A stretch of DNA of 64,000 nt. It comes from Escherichia phage inny. Below the pieces are notes generated by a model that was not told the DNA's origin, searched no databases, and saw nothing but the letters and a program-made list of their open reading frames with translations. The translations under genes were made by a program, and so were the position numbers. Shown here piece after piece: positions 24,831-64,000 of this stretch. Every line of letters begins with the position of its first letter. Positions within the stretch are counted from its first letter, which is position 1. The stretch lies in sequence record MN850601.1; one strand, given 5' to 3'.

Positions 24831-24871
24831 TCTCCCTCCTTAAAATATTTCTAAAGTCTTAATTTGTTAAT

Positions 24872-24900
24872 ACTGTACCACAAATTAATTGTTTTGTAAA
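24872..24900 (-). promoter_or_regulatory. candidate sigma70-like promoter upstream of DNA polymerase gene
   Basis: Minus-strand TTTACA, 17-nt spacer, TACAGT; overlaps upstream hairpin. Confidence 0.25.
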
Positions 24901-24922
24901 GGGGCTTTCGCCCCTTCTTGTT
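24898..24922 (-). terminator. hairpin terminator
   Basis: GGGGC-TTTC-GCCCC hairpin between upstream gene stop and polymerase gene. Confidence 0.45.
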
Positions 24923-25316
24923 ATTTATTGTCAGCACTTAGTTGTACTTTAATAAGGCAATTAGGGACACCATTGGTATTTCTCAAGCCTACACGTTCAA
25001 TTTTAACAGTGCCTGTCAAACCATTAAAAGTGGAAACAATGTTATTAATGTTTTCATCCTTACTAGTGATATCAAGAATAACTTTATCACTAACATTTTT
25101 CAACATACGATCTACAAGCTCTCCCACAAAACCACTGGTAGTTTGAATGAGAAGGTATAGACAACCATCTTCAAACCACAAATGTTCACCATAAGCATAA
25201 CCGTATGGTTCTAATTCTGATCCGTCTTGAAATTTAAACTTAGCAATAGTTTTCGTATAATCATACGCTAAAGCAGAAGGGCATACCCCATAGAGGATAT
25301 TTTCGTTGTCTTTCAT
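24921..25316 (-). CDS. hypothetical protein (start moved to internal ATG with GGAG RBS)
   Basis: ORF 24921..25445 overlaps primase-helicase 3' end; ATG at 25316 preceded by TAAGGAGAAAAAT directly after primase stop. Confidence 0.45.
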   Translation of the reverse strand: MKDNENILYGVCPSALAYDYTKTIAKFKFQDGSELEPYGYAYGEHLWFEDGCLYLLIQTTSGFVGELVDRMLKNVSDKVILDITSKDENINNIVSTFNGLTGTVKIERVGLRNTNGVPNCLIKVQLSADNK

Positions 25317-25326
25317 ATTTTTCTCC

Positions 25327-31878: not shown

Positions 31879-31898
31879 GAGGGGGGATAATCCCCCTC
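31879..31898 (-). terminator. GC-rich hairpin (terminator candidate, no clear U-tract)
   Basis: GAGGGGG-GATAAT-CCCCCTC inverted repeat just downstream of gene 31909..32511. Confidence 0.4.
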
Positions 31899-35273: not shown

Positions 35274-36377
35274 TTAAAGTAGACCACGTTTAACAGTTTG
35301 AATCATACCATCTTCAAGAGATTGCACTTCTTGAATGTAATCAATACGAGCAGCACGGGCTTCAGTGTTGATTCGGTTAGTTTCTTCCAACATTTTAACT
35401 AAGTTTTCTTGATCACGACGCAATGTTTCAATATCCAATACTTGACGATTAGCAAGTTGTGTAGCTTCAATCTGGTTTTGTGCAGCCAGATCACTACCCA
35501 TTGCAATAGCAGCATTAAATTCATTCAGTACGTTGTTCTGTGTATCGGCTGCTTTCTTCTGGCGCAGACTTTCAATATACATAGAAAAGTTTGCAGAGTA
35601 AGCAGGAATAACATTGTTCACAATATTACGGGCTGATCGCATCAAACTTGCAGATACTTTCTGCATACTTTGTACACGTGGCCCCATCTGAACGCACAGT
35701 AAGCGTAAGGCTTTCAGGTCTGCAATACGAATTTCAAGCAGATCCATAGTGTCACGAGTACGTTGACGCTCTTCTACTTCATTTTCAGGTAGTGTATTAA
35801 GGCGAACTTCTTCTTTTTCATAAGTAGCTGTTAGAAGCTCTATATCCCTGTTTAAGCTAAGAGCATATTTTGCAATAGCCTCCTCTAAACGTTGCAGATA
35901 TCGTAAAGAATCTTCTTCTTTTTTCAAGTCTGTTTGGAGTGTCTTTACCAAACCCTCAATACGATTATTGATGGTGTCAAATTCTCCAAACAAATCTTCT
36001 TTCATACCTAATACTTTCTTAACTAACTTACCTAAACCTTTAGATTGTTTAATAGAATTAGGATCAAGTTGCTTTGCTTGCTTAATAAGTGCAGTTAAAC
36101 GTTCACTCATTTCATCTCCCTGAGATGAACGCTGGTGTTTAAGCACTTCAGCATTAAGGTTACGAAGAGTAAGTCCTGCATCAGCACCAACTTGTTCAAT
36201 CTCTTCACGAGACATTGGAGGCAGCATTTGTACAGGTCGTGCAACAGCAGGGGCATATACAGGACTTGCATCCATAGCACTTGGAGCAAACAAAGACTTA
36301 CTTTTTTCTGTTGTTGCCGTGAATACACTCATTTCAGACGGTTTGCTTTTTACGGCACTGATAAAAGGACTGGACAT
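35274..36377 (-). CDS. telA: TelA-like protein (toxic anion resistance / KlaA family)
   Basis: 367 aa mostly helical; LDPNSIKQSKGLGKLVKKVLG...FDTINNRIEGL matches TelA layout as recalled; sits in the Ter cluster. Confidence 0.55.
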   Translation of the reverse strand: MSSPFISAVKSKPSEMSVFTATTEKSKSLFAPSAMDASPVYAPAVARPVQMLPPMSREEIEQVGADAGLTLRNLNAEVLKHQRSSQGDEMSERLTALIKQAKQLDPNSIKQSKGLGKLVKKVLGMKEDLFGEFDTINNRIEGLVKTLQTDLKKEEDSLRYLQRLEEAIAKYALSLNRDIELLTATYEKEEVRLNTLPENEVEERQRTRDTMDLLEIRIADLKALRLLCVQMGPRVQSMQKVSASLMRSARNIVNNVIPAYSANFSMYIESLRQKKAADTQNNVLNEFNAAIAMGSDLAAQNQIEATQLANRQVLDIETLRRDQENLVKMLEETNRINTEARAARIDYIQEVQSLEDGMIQTVKRGLL

Positions 36378-36445
36378 TCAATTTCCTCCATATTCTTTAG
36401 TAGATGGTGATACCTCTGTACCACCATCATAACACAAATTAAGTA

Positions 36446-37297
36446 TTAAACAAACATATCTAAATAATTTGTAGTAATAAATGCTCCATCTGCTTCCAGA
36501 TTAACATAACCAGTAGCATTAGTGGTTAAGAAATCCAGATCGAAGGACTCTTTAACACCCCGTACCTCAACACGAGAGATATCGAATACAGGTAGTGTAA
36601 CAGCCTCTTCGTGCAATACCGTACCTTTGTAGGTTGCCTTAATGATAAACTTGATATTACCCGTTCCAGCATCATACAAAACACTTTCAAACCCTTTGAG
36701 AGTATATTTATCACCAGAAGTGAAGTGCAAAGTTGCTTTGTTTACAGTACGTTTTTTACGAGGAGTTCCTTTCACACGTTTATGATCACTACGTTTTTTG
36801 TATTTAGGAATGAATACAAACGATACACTCTCAAGAAAGGTATCAACATCAAGGATTTTAATATCCTCTGTTGCAGCAAATTTTGAAGTCGTTGCATCAA
36901 AATGCTTTTCCCTGCGATCATACATAAAGATATCAAACCGATCTTCTAAATCAAACAAATTATGTATTTTAATTTCAGAATGCTTGCGCATTGCAGCAAC
37001 CTTGAACTCTTCAAAACGTGGGTGTTCTACAAGTTCTTCAAGTTTTACACCAAAGACAGTATATTGCTTCGAAGTCTTTTCTGGTGTTGGCATTACAGAA
37101 GCATAATCACCGATTGCGCTCTTAAAGCAAAATTGTTCTTGACCTGTATTTTTACCAACGAATTTACAGTATTCGTCATTGTGCATACTTTCCTTAGTAG
37201 TACCAACAAACTCAAAACCATCTTTATTCTTCTCAAGGATTTCTTGATTAAAGATCCAACCTTCCAGGCGATATACTTTACCAACTTCTAGTTTCAT
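36446..37297 (-). CDS. hypothetical protein
   Basis: 283 aa; AAGGAG RBS. Confidence 0.45.
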   Translation of the reverse strand: MKLEVGKVYRLEGWIFNQEILEKNKDGFEFVGTTKESMHNDEYCKFVGKNTGQEQFCFKSAIGDYASVMPTPEKTSKQYTVFGVKLEELVEHPRFEEFKVAAMRKHSEIKIHNLFDLEDRFDIFMYDRREKHFDATTSKFAATEDIKILDVDTFLESVSFVFIPKYKKRSDHKRVKGTPRKKRTVNKATLHFTSGDKYTLKGFESVLYDAGTGNIKFIIKATYKGTVLHEEAVTLPVFDISRVEVRGVKESFDLDFLTTNATGYVNLEADGAFITTNYLDMFV

Positions 37298-37332
37298 CTG
37301 TTTCTCCTTCTTATTTAATCTGTATTAAATTA

Positions 37333-37923
37333 TTAACGACGACGTGAGCTACTAAAACTACGTTTCGACGAAGAATAACTTTTCGAAGACTTACTATAAG
37401 AGCTAATAGGGCTTGAGTAAGACTTACGAGCAGAGTAATCACTATTCACTTTTGTTGTTGACGGGCGTGAATACGTTTGTACACTTTGCTGCTTAATTGT
37501 GTTTTGTTTAGTGGTTGTATATTTATTTCCTTGTTTATCATAAAAACTATGCTTTTGTGTTGTATATGCTTTACTGTTAGTTGTAGGAGCAGCGTTGTTA
37601 TTAATAATTGTTGTACTGCTACCACCATCTCTATAACCGCCACCGCCACTATTACCACTCAACATATGACCAAGAAGCATACCTGTAGCAAACTCACCTA
37701 CACCAGAAGAACCACTGCCGCCTCCTTGCACAACAACTGTTGAAGGTTGTGCAGGTGCTGCTTGAACAACTTGAGGTGCAGGTTGATTTACATATTGTTC
37801 ATCTACCATCTGATTTGGTGTTTGTTGGTAACGTTGATTTTGTACATTTTCAGAATCATCACAACCTACCAGCAATGCACTACCTAATACAACTGCAACA
37901 ATAAAAGATTTAATGTTTTTCAT
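37333..37923 (-). CDS. lipoprotein with glycine-zipper segment (start at second ATG)
   Basis: Signal peptide with lipobox LLVGC; Gly-rich GGGSGSSGVGEFATGMLLGHMLSGNSGGGG; Ser/Gln-rich tail. Confidence 0.5.
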   Translation of the reverse strand: MKNIKSFIVAVVLGSALLVGCDDSENVQNQRYQQTPNQMVDEQYVNQPAPQVVQAAPAQPSTVVVQGGGSGSSGVGEFATGMLLGHMLSGNSGGGGYRDGGSSTTIINNNAAPTTNSKAYTTQKHSFYDKQGNKYTTTKQNTIKQQSVQTYSRPSTTKVNSDYSARKSYSSPISSYSKSSKSYSSSKRSFSSSRRR

Positions 37924-38116
37924 TTGTAACCCTCTCATTTAAAGTCTCAACACAATTTTTAAAATCCCTAGAGAAACAATACATCTGTTCTCCGTTCCTG
38001 TTGATAGTAATTGTATGGTTATCAATATATGTTGTCAAGATAAAAATCAAACAAAACAACCCTAGAGCAAAACAAATATTTTCAAACAGAATCCAAAGAA
38101 CACGTAAAACCACCAT
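37910..38116 (-). CDS. small hydrophobic protein
   Basis: 68 aa with one hydrophobic helix. Confidence 0.3.
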   Translation of the reverse strand: MVVLRVLWILFENICFALGLFCLIFILTTYIDNHTITINRNGEQMYCFSRDFKNCVETLNERVTNEKH

Positions 38117-38155
38117 CAGATCACCTCAACAAAGCCCCCGAAGTGGCTTAATGAA

Positions 38156-39133
38156 TTAAGCAACAGTCTGGTCTTCTTTTTCAGGGAAGATTAAACTTGC
38201 AATAACACCCAACCCAAGAGTACCTAACACAATATACATACTGATCGTCGGATCAATGTGTGCTGGCAGGAAACTCACTTTTGCGTGCAGAGTTTCTGCA
38301 AACGGATGATACATCAGTTTTACACCCACAAACACCAGGACTACGATAACTGCTTTCTCCAGATGAACCAAATACTTCAGTGCAACACTAAGAACAAAGA
38401 ACAGAGCACGTAAACCTAAGATTGCACAAAGCATCGAAGAGAACACCAGCAGAGGTTCTTGTGTCACTGCAATTACTGCTGGAACAGAGTCTACTGCAAA
38501 GATTACGTCTACCATTTCCATTACAAACACACAAACCAGAGCCGGAGTTGCTACACGAACACCATTTTTGATTGTGAAGAACTTCTCACCATCCATCTGA
38601 TCAGATACAGGGAACAGCTTACGAACAATACGAGTAGCCCAGTGTTTAGAGTAATCAATTTCTGCATCATTATCCCCAGCGAATACCATTTTAGCCGCAC
38701 AGAAAAGGATGACAGCACCGAAGAAGATATTAACATACCAGCCCAAACTCAACAAGTAAGTACCTACTGCTACAAACACACCTCGGAAGACAATTGCACC
38801 TGCAATACCCCAAAGTAGAATCTTGTGCTGCAAGTGTGTGCTTTTAATACCAAAACTTGCGAAGACTGCCACAAATACTACTAAGTTATCTACAGAAAGA
38901 GATTTCTCCAACACATAACCACTCAAGAACAAGCTCGCAAAATCAGCACCGTGTTGGAAGTATACAAAACCATAGTAGGCTAATGATACCCCAATCCAGA
39001 AAATTGACCAACCAATTGCAGATTTAAATGAGATCTCTTTGTTTTCTCTGTGTCCAAAGAAGTCAATACAAATCGACAAGACTAAAATACCCACTAAAAC
39101 AACCACATCAATAATTGGGAAACCCAGTTGCAT
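38156..39133 (-). CDS. terC: TerC-family integral membrane protein
   Basis: 325 aa polytopic; EKSLSVDNLVVFVAVF and later AVDSVPAVIAVT match TerC/Alx signatures. Confidence 0.8.
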   Translation of the reverse strand: MQLGFPIIDVVVLVGILVLSICIDFFGHRENKEISFKSAIGWSIFWIGVSLAYYGFVYFQHGADFASLFLSGYVLEKSLSVDNLVVFVAVFASFGIKSTHLQHKILLWGIAGAIVFRGVFVAVGTYLLSLGWYVNIFFGAVILFCAAKMVFAGDNDAEIDYSKHWATRIVRKLFPVSDQMDGEKFFTIKNGVRVATPALVCVFVMEMVDVIFAVDSVPAVIAVTQEPLLVFSSMLCAILGLRALFFVLSVALKYLVHLEKAVIVVLVFVGVKLMYHPFAETLHAKVSFLPAHIDPTISMYIVLGTLGLGVIASLIFPEKEDQTVA

Positions 39134-39151
39134 TCTTTTCTCCTCTTTAAT

Positions 39152-39170
39152 GCGGAGGACAATCCTCCGC
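39152..39170 (-). promoter_or_regulatory. 5' leader hairpin immediately upstream of terC RBS
   Basis: GCGGAGG-(5 nt)-CCTCCGC inverted repeat ends 5 nt before the AGAGGAG RBS of terC. Confidence 0.4.
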
Positions 39171-39182
39171 TCTATGTCTTAT

Positions 39183-39210
39183 ACTATAAACTGTTTTTAA
39201 AGAAAGTCAA
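39183..39210 (-). promoter_or_regulatory. candidate sigma70-like promoter for terC
   Basis: Minus-strand TTGACT, 16-nt spacer, TATAGT directly after upstream stop codon. Confidence 0.35.
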
Positions 39211-39459
39211 CTAGTTCAGTTCTGTAATTTTAAGTTTATCTTCTTTGTTAATGATAGGGAAAGCTACAGCATCACCTACGTCATCAATAAAGCAAATAGC
39301 AATACCACCTTCCACTTTGCTAATCTGACCATTAAAGGCATGATACGGGGCAGGAACTTGATCTCCATCTTCAAGGAGAATAGCCTCGTAAACCTTGCCG
39401 ATAGTACAATCACGAGTGTTTCTAAATTTTTCAAGCACTTCAACATTTACTTTACGCAT
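39211..39459 (-). CDS. hypothetical protein
   Basis: 82 aa; GAGAGGA RBS. Confidence 0.4.
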   Translation of the reverse strand: MRKVNVEVLEKFRNTRDCTIGKVYEAILLEDGDQVPAPYHAFNGQISKVEGGIAICFIDDVGDAVAFPIINKEDKLKITELN

Positions 39460-39473
39460 ATAAAAATCCTCTC

Positions 39474-39680
39474 TTATTTGTTAGATTGAAAGATACCACG
39501 AAGTACCGCAAGAATGAACGTCACACAGACTACACTCCAAAACGTTACAGGAACATGATGCCAGTCTAAACCGATAATGTCAATCATATAGTTGTATGCT
39601 AAAAGCAGTAGCCAACTAGGGATTAACACAATCAAGAACACAACAATAAAACAACCTAATACTGCTAAAACACCTGCCAT
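39474..39680 (-). CDS. small membrane protein
   Basis: 68 aa, two hydrophobic helices; AAGGAG RBS. Confidence 0.4.
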   Translation of the reverse strand: MAGVLAVLGCFIVVFLIVLIPSWLLLLAYNYMIDIIGLDWHHVPVTFWSVVCVTFILAVLRGIFQSNK

Positions 39681-39689
39681 ACTTTCTCC

Positions 39690-40406
39690 TTATTTCAGTT
39701 TGTAAACAATTACATTTAAACCTTTGTTCACTAGAGTTTCTTCGATCATAAGTTTTACAATATTCCAAGAACCTCCAGCCAAACCACAACCAAGCATTGG
39801 TAAACCTACAATTTTACCGCCTGAAGATACAACATCGTCTCCCATACTATCTAACGCATTGTAGATAGCTTCATAATTCAGGTCACGCTTACCTTCCTCA
39901 CGACGACTATAACCATATTGTCCATATAAATTATAAATTGTCAAATTGTTTTCTGTATATTTGGTAAACGTACCTAATTTTTTATAATCACCACGTTTAG
40001 TGGCACAATCTGCTTTAAACGCACCAGGCCACTTGCTTTTAATTTTTGGTGCAATACCACTACCCATAGTGCAAAAACAGTTACAGCAGTGTGCTATAGC
40101 GTCTATATCGCCTCTCTCGGCTGCTGCTAAAAGATCACCGTATACCTCAATGATACCTGCCGGATAACTTGTTACAATTTCATCTTCCCAATACATTTTC
40201 TCTACACCACCGATCAGTGCAAAGTTTTGTGTAATGCGATCATCAATATAGTTAAGACCTGAAACATACACAGCGTATTCATCCTGTGCTGTAATACCTT
40301 GCACACGAATTCTTAAGACACCATCTTTATCTGTTGCTACACGCCCAAAATCTTTTTCTGTAATATTGGTGATAGGATCTCCGAAAGTCATTACTTTATT
40401 AGACAT
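39690..40406 (-). CDS. macro-domain protein (ADP-ribose binding/processing), start at internal ATG overlapping upstream stop
   Basis: GDLLAAAERGDIDAIAHCCNCFCTMGSGIA parallels GDIT..DAIVNAAN..GGGV; later GLPMLGCGLAGGSW; ATGTCTAA start/stop overlap with PRTase gene. Confidence 0.6.
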   Translation of the reverse strand: MSNKVMTFGDPITNITEKDFGRVATDKDGVLRIRVQGITAQDEYAVYVSGLNYIDDRITQNFALIGGVEKMYWEDEIVTSYPAGIIEVYGDLLAAAERGDIDAIAHCCNCFCTMGSGIAPKIKSKWPGAFKADCATKRGDYKKLGTFTKYTENNLTIYNLYGQYGYSRREEGKRDLNYEAIYNALDSMGDDVVSSGGKIVGLPMLGCGLAGGSWNIVKLMIEETLVNKGLNVIVYKLK

Positions 40407-41256
40407 AATAATCCCCTTTAACATTAGGTTTGTTGATAATGTTGCTTTCAAAAAATTGACGTAGGAAATCAAAGTTCTCTTTGTATTTTTCAATGTTATT
40501 GTAACCTTCTGCAAGGCAACCAAAGAACAGTTGTTCTACATAATACAAAGGAAGTTGTGAAAGTGCAATTTTAAAATCAACTTCGCTTTGACTCATTAGA
40601 TACTTAATAGGACGAACCAAACATTTAGCATCAGCTTCTTGCTTAATCATTTTAATAAAAGCTGCCAGATTATTGATATAGTTGAAGTTAAGTGCAGCTT
40701 CGGTGTTGGCTTCTGTACCTTCATACTTTGCAAAGTACAGGAAAAACGTATCGTTTTCAACACCTTCTTTGTCTAAAATTTCAATAAGTTTTTCTTCGTG
40801 TGTTCCTGTAATATTAACATCATCAATGAAAATCAGAGTTTTATTACCCCAGAAATCACGATTGATAGAGAAAGTGTCACCATCGATCAAAGCCTTACGA
40901 TCTTCTTTGCTAAGAAATCCATAATCATTGATATAGCTCACTTTACGATGAACGATATCCCACTCCACTGGTTTACCACCTTTGATAGAGATTAGGTAGT
41001 TGAGGTGATCTACAAAATGTTCAGATAACACTGTAGCTGCATTTTTCACATAGTTATATGGAGATGGAATAACAACAAAACTTTCATTTACCAGTCGTTC
41101 TTCATACTTAGAAAAGAAACTTTCAGCCAGAATGCGCCCCATTCTTTTTGCTGCCTGGTTACTACCAAACTTTAGTTTGGAATAATCTGCAATGTTAAAT
41201 TTTGCTTCCTTCAGGTTAGTAAAAGTATTAGCAAAATGTTGAATTTGATTACGCAT
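40399..41256 (-). CDS. type I phosphoribosyltransferase-fold protein
   Basis: 285 aa; KTLIFIDDVNITGTHEE matches the PRPP-binding motif hhhhDDhhTTGxT; 8-nt overlaps with both neighbours. Confidence 0.65.
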   Translation of the reverse strand: MRNQIQHFANTFTNLKEAKFNIADYSKLKFGSNQAAKRMGRILAESFFSKYEERLVNESFVVIPSPYNYVKNAATVLSEHFVDHLNYLISIKGGKPVEWDIVHRKVSYINDYGFLSKEDRKALIDGDTFSINRDFWGNKTLIFIDDVNITGTHEEKLIEILDKEGVENDTFFLYFAKYEGTEANTEAALNFNYINNLAAFIKMIKQEADAKCLVRPIKYLMSQSEVDFKIALSQLPLYYVEQLFFGCLAEGYNNIEKYKENFDFLRQFFESNIINKPNVKGDYYV

Positions 41257-41905
41257 TAATAAGTTCCTCTTTTTTAAGTTTAGCCAACAAGTCTTCTGGA
41301 TTAATAATATGACAGAACTTCATCCCTATGTCAACAGCTTTTCCATCATAAATCAAACTATCTCCAACGTGTAAAATCTCTTCTGGTGCGAGATCAAACG
41401 TCACCATTTCATCAAAAGAGAGTTTAAAAAACCTAGGATCTGGTTTACACAAGCAAAACTCGTCAGAAAAATGCATAAAGTCAAATGGTAATTTTGTTAA
41501 GCCAGAATATACAGCTAAGAAACTACCTGGTACAAAATTAGTATTGCTCTTAATACTCAAAGAGTAGGTTGAACTTAGCTCTTCCAACTTCTTGCAAAGT
41601 TCAGGATTCAATGTTGGAGGATGTTTTATAAACATTGCCAAACAATCTCTTTTTAACCCATCCACTTTATCAAGATCAATGTTCAAACGAGTAGAAAGTG
41701 TTACCCAAGCATCCTTAGACGTTCCACAAATGCCTTTTTCTGCTTTTAAATCCAAGAAAGTTTTTACCTCTTTGTATACGGTAGCTGCTTCTGCCTCAGA
41801 GCAAGAGGCATACTCGGCAATAACCTTGTTGCGCTCTTCTGCATACAAAGGGTTAGCAGTAATAAGAGTATTCCATACATCAAAAGAAATATGCTTAACA
41901 GTCAT
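41249..41905 (-). CDS. HAD-superfamily hydrolase-like protein (non-canonical motif I), start at ATG with GGAGG RBS
   Basis: N-terminal KHISFDVWNTLI in motif I position (second Asp replaced); C-terminal HVGDSLIYDGKA fits GDxxxD motif IV. Confidence 0.5.
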   Translation of the reverse strand: MTVKHISFDVWNTLITANPLYAEERNKVIAEYASCSEAEAATVYKEVKTFLDLKAEKGICGTSKDAWVTLSTRLNIDLDKVDGLKRDCLAMFIKHPPTLNPELCKKLEELSSTYSLSIKSNTNFVPGSFLAVYSGLTKLPFDFMHFSDEFCLCKPDPRFFKLSFDEMVTFDLAPEEILHVGDSLIYDGKAVDIGMKFCHIINPEDLLAKLKKEELINA

Positions 41906-41907
41906 TT

Positions 41908-42063
41908 TTAATCCTCCGTCCAAAAGAATATCATCTGCTTAATTTTATTGATTTCTTGATGTAGTAACTTTCCAGCATGTGATTGATCTTTAATATTGAC
42001 AGCAAGAATTTCAAGTTCCGTTAGTTTTTCTTGGATAGCTTTATATTCATCATCTGTAAGCAT
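41908..42063 (-). CDS. small hypothetical protein (not in ORF track, below 60 aa)
   Basis: 51-codon ORF with AAAGGGGAAG RBS ending 2 nt before HAD start. Confidence 0.25.
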   Translation of the reverse strand: MLTDDEYKAIQEKLTELEILAVNIKDQSHAGKLLHQEINKIKQMIFFWTED

Positions 42064-51221: not shown

Positions 51222-51585
51222 AAATATCCTCCCAAATCCAATAATCATCTGTGTAAGTAGGATGCCTTTTATCCCACTCTGTTCTAGCCCAAGCAACCGC
51301 TGCTACTAACACATCACCATGACAAGGTTGAGGTGAGCAGAAGCAAACTAAGTCTTTCCCTTCTAATTCTAACAAATCCTCAAGAGTGATTTTACCACAA
51401 CGAATTTGTTCCCACAACCACTCTTTATATCTTTGTATAGTTGACCCTCGTGGTTCATCATCCTTTAACTTAAAAGGATTTGCAAACTTTGAGGCTTTTA
51501 ACCCCATATGAGGCATAGCTCTGCCAATGTAAACTGCACCTTCAGGTATTACTTTACCTAAGTGGTAAAAATTTAATACTTTCAT
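51199..51585 (-). CDS. hypothetical Cys/His-motif protein
   Basis: Contains KDLVCFCSPQPCHGDVL; start ambiguous (TTG at 51609 or ATG at 51585). Confidence 0.4.
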   Translation of the reverse strand: MKVLNFYHLGKVIPEGAVYIGRAMPHMGLKASKFANPFKLKDDEPRGSTIQRYKEWLWEQIRCGKITLEDLLELEGKDLVCFCSPQPCHGDVLVAAVAWARTEWDKRHPTYTDDYWIWEDIYEDYTRN

Positions 51586-51586
51586 A

Positions 51587-54767: not shown

Positions 54768-55033
54768 TTTGGAAACACCTCTTGTCCATCTTCATGCATT
54801 TGTAGTAAAGTTTCACAGATTTCATACACATCTTGATATGTTACAACTGAGAGATCAGATTCTTGATCTTCGACAAGCATAGCACAAAGAGCTTTAATGT
54901 CAATACCTTTACAATGTTCCGTAGCTATACGGTACATTTCACCATCCTCCCAAACAATTGGTTGCGGAAGCAAAACGTCTGTACCATCTTCACAAGTTAC
55001 AATGTAGTCTGCAATATTATCACGAATTTTCAT
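54764..55033 (-). CDS. hypothetical protein
   Basis: 89 aa; AAGGGGG RBS. Confidence 0.4.
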   Translation of the reverse strand: MKIRDNIADYIVTCEDGTDVLLPQPIVWEDGEMYRIATEHCKGIDIKALCAMLVEDQESDLSVVTYQDVYEICETLLQMHEDGQEVFPK

Positions 55034-55287
55034 TGTACTACCCCCTTAAATCCAGATGTGCTGCCAGTTTTAACTTTTGCTTTAAGATGTTCCAACTCTA
55101 CCATAGGTGTTGCTACTTGTATAGGATTTTCCTCAACCTCATGGATATAATATTCATAATAAGCATACTTACCAATAGAGTGCAGATACTTAATTGCATG
55201 TTCAGGCGAATCTGCTTCGACATACCCTAAATCTTTTGTGGTACGACCTTCGCAATCACCTTCGGTAGTTACATGATAAAGTGTCAT
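55030..55287 (-). CDS. hypothetical protein
   Basis: 85 aa; GAGGAGG RBS. Confidence 0.4.
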   Translation of the reverse strand: MTLYHVTTEGDCEGRTTKDLGYVEADSPEHAIKYLHSIGKYAYYEYYIHEVEENPIQVATPMVELEHLKAKVKTGSTSGFKGVVQ

Positions 55288-55436
55288 AAAACCTCCTCAT
55301 AGTAAGGTAAAGCCTTGATCAGTTGTTCTGAAGTGCCATTTTGTACCCACGTAACACCATTGTCAACAGAAACATACCCTTTTTTGTCAATAAATTTACG
55401 CAGACAGCCAGTGAACTTATTTTTGTAGATAACCAT
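55284..55436 (-). CDS. small hypothetical protein (not in ORF track)
   Basis: 50-aa ORF MVIYKNKFTGCLRKF... with AAGGAG RBS; ATGA overlap with downstream gene. Confidence 0.3.
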   Translation of the reverse strand: MVIYKNKFTGCLRKFIDKKGYVSVDNGVTWVQNGTSEQLIKALPYYEEVL

Positions 55437-55445
55437 GTTTACTCC

Positions 55446-63397: not shown

Positions 63398-63425
63398 TTG
63401 ACAACGTTTTTTAATCTGATAAGAT
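63398..63425 (+). promoter_or_regulatory. candidate strong sigma70 promoter
   Basis: TTGACA, 16-nt spacer, TAAGAT, about 50 nt upstream of ATG at 63478. Confidence 0.45.
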
Positions 63426-63477
63426 GTATCACATAGGGCGGCAATAGTGCCGCTCATAACAGAAGAGAGAAATAATC

Positions 63478-63750
63478 ATGGCATCATATAGCGCATCAAT
63501 GATCGTAATGGGCATCACTGGTAAACCTATGCGCGGTGGCGGATCTTTCGCTAACATCAATATTGATGGGCGTTTATCCCTGGATGCAGCGATCACCGTG
63601 GCACGGGAAACATTTAAAAAAGAATGTAATTTCAATAAACAAGATTATCTCGGTTTCGCTATTGAAAAAACCGCGCGATTTGTGGATTATAAAAGCCCGA
63701 AAATGATCGACACTACACTAAAAGCGCAAGATGTAGCGTTTTTGCTTTAA
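63478..63750 (+). CDS. hypothetical protein
   Basis: 90 aa; GAGAGAAATAATC RBS; downstream of TTGACA promoter. Confidence 0.45.
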   Translation: MASYSASMIVMGITGKPMRGGGSFANINIDGRLSLDAAITVARETFKKECNFNKQDYLGFAIEKTARFVDYKSPKMIDTTLKAQDVAFLL

Positions 63751-63753
63751 GTC

Positions 63754-63781
63754 TTGACACTGAAAAATAATTTGGTAATAT
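63754..63781 (+). promoter_or_regulatory. candidate strong sigma70 promoter
   Basis: TTGACA, 16-nt spacer, TAATAT, about 55 nt upstream of ATG at 63839. Confidence 0.4.
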
Positions 63782-63838
63782 ATACTCCATAAGGCGGGAA
63801 ATGGTTTCCCGCCAGGCCATCAAAGAAAGGGTAACACA

Positions 63839-64000
63839 ATGAGCAAGCAAATCAATACTATCATGTTAAACCTGGTATCTTTCCGCGACGACGTGAAAAA
63901 TCTTCCACGTGATGCAGTGGATGCACGGATCGAAAGCTATCGCTCACAGATCGCAACGCTACCGCTAAAACGTGATCAACATGCCGCTAATATGATGCTT
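63839..64000 (+). CDS. hypothetical protein, 3' partial (runs off window end)
   Basis: ATG at 63839 with AAAGGG RBS; frame open to window end. Confidence 0.4.
   Translation, partial: MSKQINTIMLNLVSFRDDVKNLPRDAVDARIESYRSQIATLPLKRDQHAANMML

Follow-up and report, generated by a model that had tools for sequence, protein, structure and literature searches.

The gene terC of Escherichia phage inny (sequence record MN850601.1) is separated from the preceding open reading frame (ORF) by a gap of 77 nt, and this gap holds a promoter and a hairpin. The question that the locus raises is whether such an arrangement is a leader switch devoted to terC or an element of wider use in the phage genome. A preliminary description had drawn attention to the pairing, within the hairpin, of a Shine-Dalgarno-like GGAGG with CCUCC, and had considered a small structural switch or an RNase processing site possible, noting that bacterial TerC-family genes are often under riboswitch or leader control.

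The stretch of DNA analysed, hereafter the window, comprises 64,000 nucleotides and belongs to a phi92-like Escherichia myovirus of Justusliebigvirus. It is 99.9% identical to Escherichia phage ALITA, and its identity to phi92, Paula, alia and further Justusliebigvirus phages is 96-99%. Sequences of the phi92/phAPEC8 type are also found under unexpected record names: the Campylobacter phages A150, A145, C3 and A110a (97-98% identical to the window), Pseudomonas phage PsgM04F, which likewise matches the window, and Enterococcus phage heks (39.7 kb), which matches at 548-600 the promoter and stem-loop module described below. These records are probably the result of mislabelling, contamination or chimeric assembly.

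terC (38156-39133, minus strand) lies in a minus-strand gene array that spans from about 18.9 kb to 57.4 kb of the window, and it encodes a TerC-family integral membrane protein of 325 aa (Pfam PF03741, E = 1.4e-38). The upstream ORF, of 82 aa (39211-39459), ends with the stop codon TAG at 39213-39211 on the minus strand. On the 3' side of terC, a weak terminator-like hairpin, AAGCCACUUCGGGGGCUU followed by UGUUG (38120-38150, minus strand), closes a self-contained cassette; in phage ASO2A, TransTermHP and WebGeSTer place a terminator at the orthologous site. A Ter-associated accessory cluster, carried in this case by a virulent phage, extends over 35274-41923 (minus strand) and contains genes for TelA, TerC, a Macro-domain protein, a ComF-like PRTase and a HAD hydrolase, a gene set described in the literature as a 'Ter-dependent stress response / nucleoside-like metabolite' system. 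Elsewhere on the minus strand, the 'gaps' left by the coarse ORF map at 24831-25326, 51297-51586 and 54768-55445 are not true intergenic regions, because unlisted small ORFs with good ribosome-binding sites (RBSs) are found inside them; as an example, the RBS and ORF start GGAGAAAAATATG opens the first of these.

The promoter and stem-loop upstream of terC

All the elements listed in the preliminary description are present where it had placed them, on the minus strand. The -35 hexamer TTGACT (39205-39210) abuts the TAG stop codon of the upstream ORF and is followed, after a spacer of 16 nt, by the -10 hexamer TATAGT (39183-39188). Then come ATAAGACATAGA and, 12 nt after the -10 hexamer, a stem-loop (39152-39170) that reads GCGGAGG-ATTGT-CCTCCGC in the DNA and folds in the RNA as GCGGAGGA-UUG-UCCUCCGC, with 8 bp and a UUG triloop. 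The sequence AUUAA links it to the Shine-Dalgarno (SD) sequence of terC, AGAGGAG (39140-39146), which lies in an A-rich unstructured tract and is separated by the 6 nt AAAAGA from the AUG at 39133. The predicted initiation region, ACAUAGA (39171-39177), is located just 5' of the hairpin and fits the motif CA-U-A-G of the family of modules described below; from the promoter geometry and the family alignment, the +1 nucleotide of terC would be the A at about 39175. The leader RNA is about 45 nt long and has one helix.

The hairpin alone has a folding energy of -13.4 kcal/mol, and the 71-nt leader reaches a minimum free energy of -18.8 kcal/mol (z = -2.4). By itself the promoter match (10 of 12 positions) is not above chance in this AT-rich genome, since 45 promoter-like sites were counted against 38 expected from shuffles. 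The window is strongly enriched in perfect GC-rich hairpins with 7 bp or more, of which 18 were counted and 3.2 expected; most of the others are terminators, with the order A-run, stem and U-run, whereas the terC hairpin has no U-run. The combination of TTGACW, 16 nt, TAnnnT, up to 16 nt and a GC hairpin occurs three times in the window, where 0.45 occurrences would be expected.

The terC leader in related phages

The regions upstream of terC were compared among 14 phage records, several IMG/VR contigs and two metagenome contigs. IMG/VR yielded seven loci, and a single metagenome scan, which returned mostly cellular TerC genes, gave two useful loci. A common layout is found in at least five terC lineages of Stephanstirmvirinae: TTGAC(A/T), exactly 16 nt, TAnnnT, 9-12 nt, a GC stem of 7-8 bp, 7-9 nt, GGAG and then ATG. 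This architecture is the same in Justusliebigvirus, in two Phapecoctavirus groups, in Klebsiella phages and in three metagenomic or viral contigs, although the stems differ. The stem is GCGGAGGA/UCCUCCGC in Justusliebigvirus, GCGGGGAA/UUCCCCGC in Phapecoctavirus and GCGGGGAG/UUCCCCGC in the phiWec188 group, and it reads GAGGG(G/A)G/CUCCCUC in the Klebsiella phages and in locus L019, and GGGAGAG/CUCUCCC in loci L018 and L034.

Covariation was analysed in an alignment of 12 distinct leaders. All the core cells (100%) are paired, and compensatory double changes are found in five of the seven core stem pairs, together with one G·U intermediate. The covariation score is 0.58, against 0.07-0.19 when the partners are slid, and none of 500 shuffles matches the observed value; RNAalifold independently predicts the identical helix. 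Mean column conservation is 0.95 in the -35 hexamer, 0.81 in the -10 hexamer and 0.65 in the spacer. This conservation and covariation across lineages show that purifying and compensatory selection acts on both the promoter hexamers and the helix. It is thus very probable, to judge from sequence comparison, that terC has a sigma70-type promoter of its own, as the preliminary description proposed: in no fewer than five lineages the two hexamers persist and stay 16 nt apart, while the bases between them change. The proposal that the leader folds into a hairpin is supported as well, the compensatory changes being those of a selected structure. Besides, the loop core A-U-N-G is near-invariant across the terC lineages.

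On the other hand, the pairing of an SD-like GGAGG with CCUCC, to which that description drew attention, is not conserved. The stem is GCGGGGAA/UUCCCCGC in Phapecoctavirus and GGCGGGAAA/UUUCCCGCC in most of the paralogous modules, and the GGAGG is not under selection, its place being taken by GGGGAA in Phapecoctavirus.

In the terC genes examined from phages outside Stephanstirmvirinae the module is absent. There is no gap before terC in GAP52 and 3H10_20, and in APT65 the place is taken by a true terminator; on these layouts the idea of a terC-linked element beyond the subfamily was rejected. Outside the subfamily a hairpin without a U-tract was found before terC only in Vibrio phage PhiImVa-1 (Schitoviridae; locus L022, about 462-495), where AUAGGGGA-GUAA-UCCCCUAU lies 5 nt before the GGAG of terC, and the 32-nt gap leaves no room for a promoter.

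A family of promoter and stem-loop cassettes

A search for hairpins of the same loop type revealed a near-twin of the terC hairpin at 63793-63813, on the plus strand. It belongs to a paralogous module (63754-63839) composed of TTGACA, 16 nt, TAATAT, 11 nt, GGCGGGAAA-UGG-UUUCCCGCC and an SD, followed by an ATG at 63840. Another plus-strand module (63398-63477) contains TTGACA, 16 nt, TAAGAT, GTATCACATA, GGGCGGCA-AUAG-UGCCGCUC and an SD, and its ATG is at 63478. Each of the two is followed by a small ORF, where the early-gene block starts. Since the window ends where this block begins, the remainder of the ALITA genome was scanned as well. The census consisted of an explicit pattern scan with random-sequence controls, chosen over a covariance model of the whole module because MAFFT placed one hairpin subfamily out of register. 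Modules fitting the strict template number 17 in the whole ALITA genome, against 1.7 in random sequence of equal composition, and 11 of the 17 are located between small hypothetical ORFs in the early-gene block (ALITA 90.0-98.6 kb). The terC copy is one of about three inside the long minus-strand metabolic array.

The members of the family share TTGACA, a spacer of 16-17 nt, TAnnnT, an initiator-like C-A-U-A-G and the hairpin; the -35 hexamer conforms to TTGAC(A/T) in every terC lineage and in all 11 early-block paralogues. Most members have 9-12 nt between the -10 hexamer and the stem-loop, and the tail that leads to the ATG is A-rich, 17-24 nt long and contains the SD. The hairpins have folding energies from -8 to -14 kcal/mol and purine-rich 5' arms. 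In most paralogous copies the stem is GGCGGGAAA/UUUCCCGCC, and the loops vary among UGG, AUAG, UAG, CGG, UAU, CAAA and UUG. The terC leader of Phapecoctavirus, TAAGATATATCACATGAAGCGGGGAAUAGUUCCCCGC, is nearly identical to the family consensus, and a 52-nt module of the ALITA early block directly matches the terC leader of phiWec188 in BLAST. The module is present in 128 phage records, essentially all of them from Stephanstirmvirinae, with 2-6 BLAST-detectable copies per genome. The element upstream of terC is, from all these sequence comparisons, one copy of a repeated promoter and stem-loop cassette and not a terC-specific switch. The idea of a leader control typical of the TerC family likewise finds no support, with the module preceding at least 11 unrelated small early ORFs and lacking at terC genes outside the subfamily.

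The view that a full Mn riboswitch was unlikely here, also part of the preliminary description, agrees with an Rfam scan of window positions 38000-40500 at E values up to 10, in which no riboswitch was found and the matches were three chance-level eukaryotic ones; with the length of about 45 nt, this rules out an Mn riboswitch or another known RNA family. The yybP-ykoY Mn2+ riboswitch is a four-helix leader of about 100-170 nt. The only likeness of the terC leader to it, or to the pH-responsive leader of alx, is the family of the downstream gene, and it differs from both in its shortness, its single 8-bp hairpin, the lack of an Rfam match and the presence of the same leader before unrelated genes.

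The closest known kind of element is the PeSL (promoter-early stem-loop), a composite intergenic cassette described in the T4-type phages RB49, phi1, PST and nt-1 (Arbiol et al. 2010, PMC2839356; Comeau et al. 2014, PMC4122927), and the structural features of the phi92-type modules are such that these may be called PeSL-like. PeSLs have been shown to act as promoters, one of their stem-loops lowered downstream expression like a terminator, and the authors interpreted the stem-loops as terminators or attenuators (PMC2839356); it has also been proposed that PeSLs mediate modular shuffling, the marks of which are cassette-bounded indels and mini-circles (PMC2839356; PMC4122927). Both kinds of cassette consist of a near-consensus sigma70 early promoter and a stable stem-loop with a G-tract and a C-tract, with occasional G·T pairs. 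Both are present in many copies per genome, concentrated among small ORFans. The limits of the terC module, with a -35 hexamer that abuts the stop codon TAG and an end formed by AGAGGAG, 6 nt and ATG, also fit the published description. However, the hosts of the present modules are Stephanstirmvirinae and not T4-type phages, the modules lack a U-tract, and their stem-loop is uniformly located 9-12 nt past the -10 box, whereas in PeSLs it is mostly between or over the promoter boxes; one of the five positional subclasses of PeSLs does have the stem-loop 3' of the -10 box (PMC2839356). A comparison with the RB49 motifs, which was not rigorous, found no sequence relationship. In the literature on rV5-, phi92- and phAPEC8-type phages no description of such cassettes was found, only promoter and terminator calls made by software, and in that on Stephanstirmvirinae no transcriptome or mapping of transcription starts was found.

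Some features of these genomes are suggestive of shuffling at the module. When genera are compared, the DNA becomes homologous again within the promoter spacer. The ORF of about 80 aa located 5' of terC, which has promoter cassettes at its borders, occurs in Justusliebigvirus and in the Klebsiella phages and is absent from Phapecoctavirus, where the terC module abuts a membrane ORF of 73 aa. Related to this, the module at 63754-63839 is not the same in the window as in ALITA: the differences concern the stretch between the -10 hexamer and the stem-loop, the 5' arm of the stem-loop and the tail that follows, which hints at an exchange at the level of modules.

Other arrangements of promoters and stem-loops were observed near these genes. 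In Klebsiella phage loci L014 (370-493), L013 (383-506) and L021 (47-170), a true terminator, GAGCCUCC-UAC-GGGAGGCU with a U-run, is located 5' of the ORF of about 80 aa, and a promoter without hairpin (TTGACT, 16 nt, TAAACT) precedes this ORF. Upstream of telA (36378-36445, minus strand) an extended -10-like sequence, TGTTATGAT, is overlapped by a strong hairpin of 11 bp, GATGGUGGUAC-AGAG-GUAUCACCAUC, situated just before the telA RBS. This resembles the PeSL subclass in which the stem-loop lies over the -10 box, an arrangement in which the whole hairpin would be present only in read-through transcripts. At 31879-31898 (minus strand), a hairpin without U-tract, GAGGGGG-AUUAU-CCCCCCUC, lies 3 nt 5' of a promoter composed of TTGCAA, 17 nt and TACAAT; here the stem-loop comes before the promoter, the reverse of the order in the terC module.

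Possible roles of the stem-loop

The interpretation preferred here, to which we give about an even chance of being right, is that of a compact expression cassette in which a sigma70 early promoter, a GC-rich stem-loop, an A-rich RBS and the gene follow one another, and in which the hairpin would stabilise or insulate the mRNA near its 5' end. The helix lies inside the transcript of the cassette itself, because it is located 9-12 nt 3' of the -10 box. The promoter, a putatively strong early promoter read with host sigma70, would start transcription at the A of the conserved CAUAG, which would leave 2-5 nt between the start of the terC mRNA and the hairpin. In such a position the stem-loop could slow the decay pathways that depend on the 5' end (RppH, RNase E) and keep the adjacent RBS clear of pairing with upstream sequences. 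It would fold equally well in read-through RNA initiated upstream, and there it may serve as a weak attenuator or as a barrier at the 3' end. The GGAGG in the 5' arm of the terC copy would be incidental, and the arms would be purine-rich and pyrimidine-rich because they have evolved by transitions through G·U intermediates.

In E. coli, 5'-terminal stem-loops stabilise mRNAs, as was reportedly found for the ompA 5' UTR by Emory, Bouvet and Belasco in 1992. The terC leader resembles hairpin 1 of that UTR, and synthetic 5' hairpins, in having a short stable hairpin near the predicted 5' end, with an unstructured RBS next to it and an SD that is not masked. To protect the 5' end of an mRNA, a hairpin is expected to lie at a distance of about 0-4 nt from it. 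The number of unpaired 5' nucleotides predicted from promoter geometry is about 2 in the Klebsiella-type and L018 leaders but about 5 in the window and in Phapecoctavirus, which is borderline, at the upper limit for protection. Regarding expression, terC is probably transcribed immediately after infection as an autonomous, moron-like unit. Morons are autonomous promoter-gene-terminator units, classically found in temperate phages and expressed from the prophage. As in a moron, terC is an accessory gene with its own predicted promoter and a terminator-like hairpin downstream, but the phage is virulent and the promoter belongs to the phage's own early class.

Applied to this locus, the opinion of the PeSL authors would mean that the stem-loop stops or damps transcription arriving from upstream, so that each cassette sets its own expression, and that the same hairpin is tolerated, or partly attenuating, in the cassette's own transcript. 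Such a function is unlikely, although the hairpin has the GC-rich stem of 7-9 bp and the loop of 3-5 nt of an intrinsic terminator, a G-tract followed by a C-tract, and the size of the phage's true terminators. It also has to be set against a stabilising role that an RB49 PeSL stem-loop cut the expression of lacZ as strongly as rrnB T1 (PMC2839356). However, the sense-strand tail of the terC hairpin, AUUAAAGA, contains 2 U in 8 nt and that of Phapecoctavirus terC none; the lineages and paralogues have 0-2 U among the first 8 nt 3' of the stem, where true terminators, which in this genome are flanked by an A-run and a U-run, have 4-5. With such tails, and no U-tract in any lineage or paralogue, a sense-strand intrinsic terminator is rejected. 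Moreover, the hairpin is placed after the promoter and not before it, and an efficient terminator 9-12 nt 3' of the -10 box would abort the cassette's own transcripts. An RNase III site is dismissed as well, because this enzyme requires a stem longer than 8 bp. Public records do not agree on the strand: those of Paula and PATM contain an opposite-strand terminator, and that of ASO2A has the promoter and then a rho-independent 'terminator' called by WebGeSTer on the sense strand, which speaks for a terminator or attenuator. The terminator scan flagged the hairpin on the opposite strand only, with a poor tail (UCUAUGUCUU) that is nevertheless somewhat richer in U. From this tail and the annotations of Paula and PATM, and considering that PeSLs serve as recombination joints in T4-type phages (PMC2839356) and that the ORF 5' of terC has been gained or lost at promoter cassettes, it could be argued that the palindrome works in double-stranded DNA, as an operator or recombination site, or as a terminator of antisense transcription. 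This is very unlikely. The six non-Watson-Crick positions found in the stems are all G·U on the sense strand and none is A·C, so each would turn into a C·A mismatch if the opposite strand or a palindrome in DNA were the functional form; this 6:0 asymmetry points to a helix in the RNA transcribed in the sense of terC. The asymmetry also disfavours the opposite-strand terminator of the Paula and PATM records, as does the lack of plus-strand genes to be terminated at the terC locus, and other lineages have no U-tract in the tail of the opposite strand. A role in recombination is compatible with the expression cassette and does not replace it.

The small structural switch is the most improbable of the mechanisms considered. 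It would use the 5' arm as a decoy that holds the pyrimidine-rich 3' arm, and once RNase cleavage, an internal start or an sRNA had removed or bound the 5' arm, its partner would pair with the SD and repress the translation of terC. The intact hairpin neither masks nor unmasks the RBS, because opening the SD-AUG region costs 0.69 kcal/mol with the hairpin and 0.71 kcal/mol without it. Without the 5' arm the SD does become harder to open, at an extra cost of 2.3 kcal/mol in the window, where the freed 3' arm sequesters the SD weakly, and of 3.4-6.8 kcal/mol in the leaders of the Klebsiella type and of L018 and L019. However, the increase is just 0.6-1.4 kcal/mol in Phapecoctavirus, and since the penalty is large only in those Klebsiella-type, L018 and L019 leaders the switch is not a conserved property. 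Besides, the alternative helix is far weaker than the hairpin, which forms first during transcription; the GGAGG is not conserved; no ligand-binding fold or Rfam match is present; and identical modules precede many unrelated genes with 3' arms that are not complementary to the SD. Thus, of the preliminary interpretation, the promoter and the structured leader stand, and the SD mimic, the switch and a regulation specific to TerC do not. A recognition signal is also to be considered, if with little probability. The 5' stem-loop would be a regulon-wide tag with a U-R-G loop core, bound by a phage or host RNA-binding factor that acts on all the early transcripts, and terC would have been recruited to this class control of early mRNAs; shut-off, decay, antitermination or translational control could be involved, as with lambda nut/boxB or the targets of T4 RegB and RegA. 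The loop core A-U-N-G, nearly invariant even though five of seven stem pairs have changed, points to such a factor, and so do the high sequence likeness of the paralogous hairpins and the specific marking of the early-gene block by the module; the first two observations also speak against the stabiliser, since either a recognising factor or gene conversion could lie behind them. On the contrary, the loops differ among paralogues, the stems differ widely between terC lineages, duplication or gene conversion could explain the likeness of the paralogues, and no candidate binding protein was identified.

The account in terms of expression cassettes operates at the level of the genome and replaces that of a gene-specific switch in the terC leader. 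It implies that Stephanstirmvirinae, that is phi92, phAPEC8 and their relatives, which are commonly isolated as candidates for therapy, possess a family of PeSL-like promoter and stem-loop cassettes in which the transcribed stem-loop is predicted to form, in every case, the 5' end of the mRNA. The conflicting 'terminator' annotations of the public records are explained in this way, and the prediction follows that terC and the early ORFans are expressed immediately by the host RNA polymerase. The cassettes are also compact natural parts made of a promoter, a 5' hairpin and an RBS, with a helix backed by covariation. If they were recombination joints as well, this would account for the way in which small genes have been gained and lost as modules in Stephanstirmvirinae.
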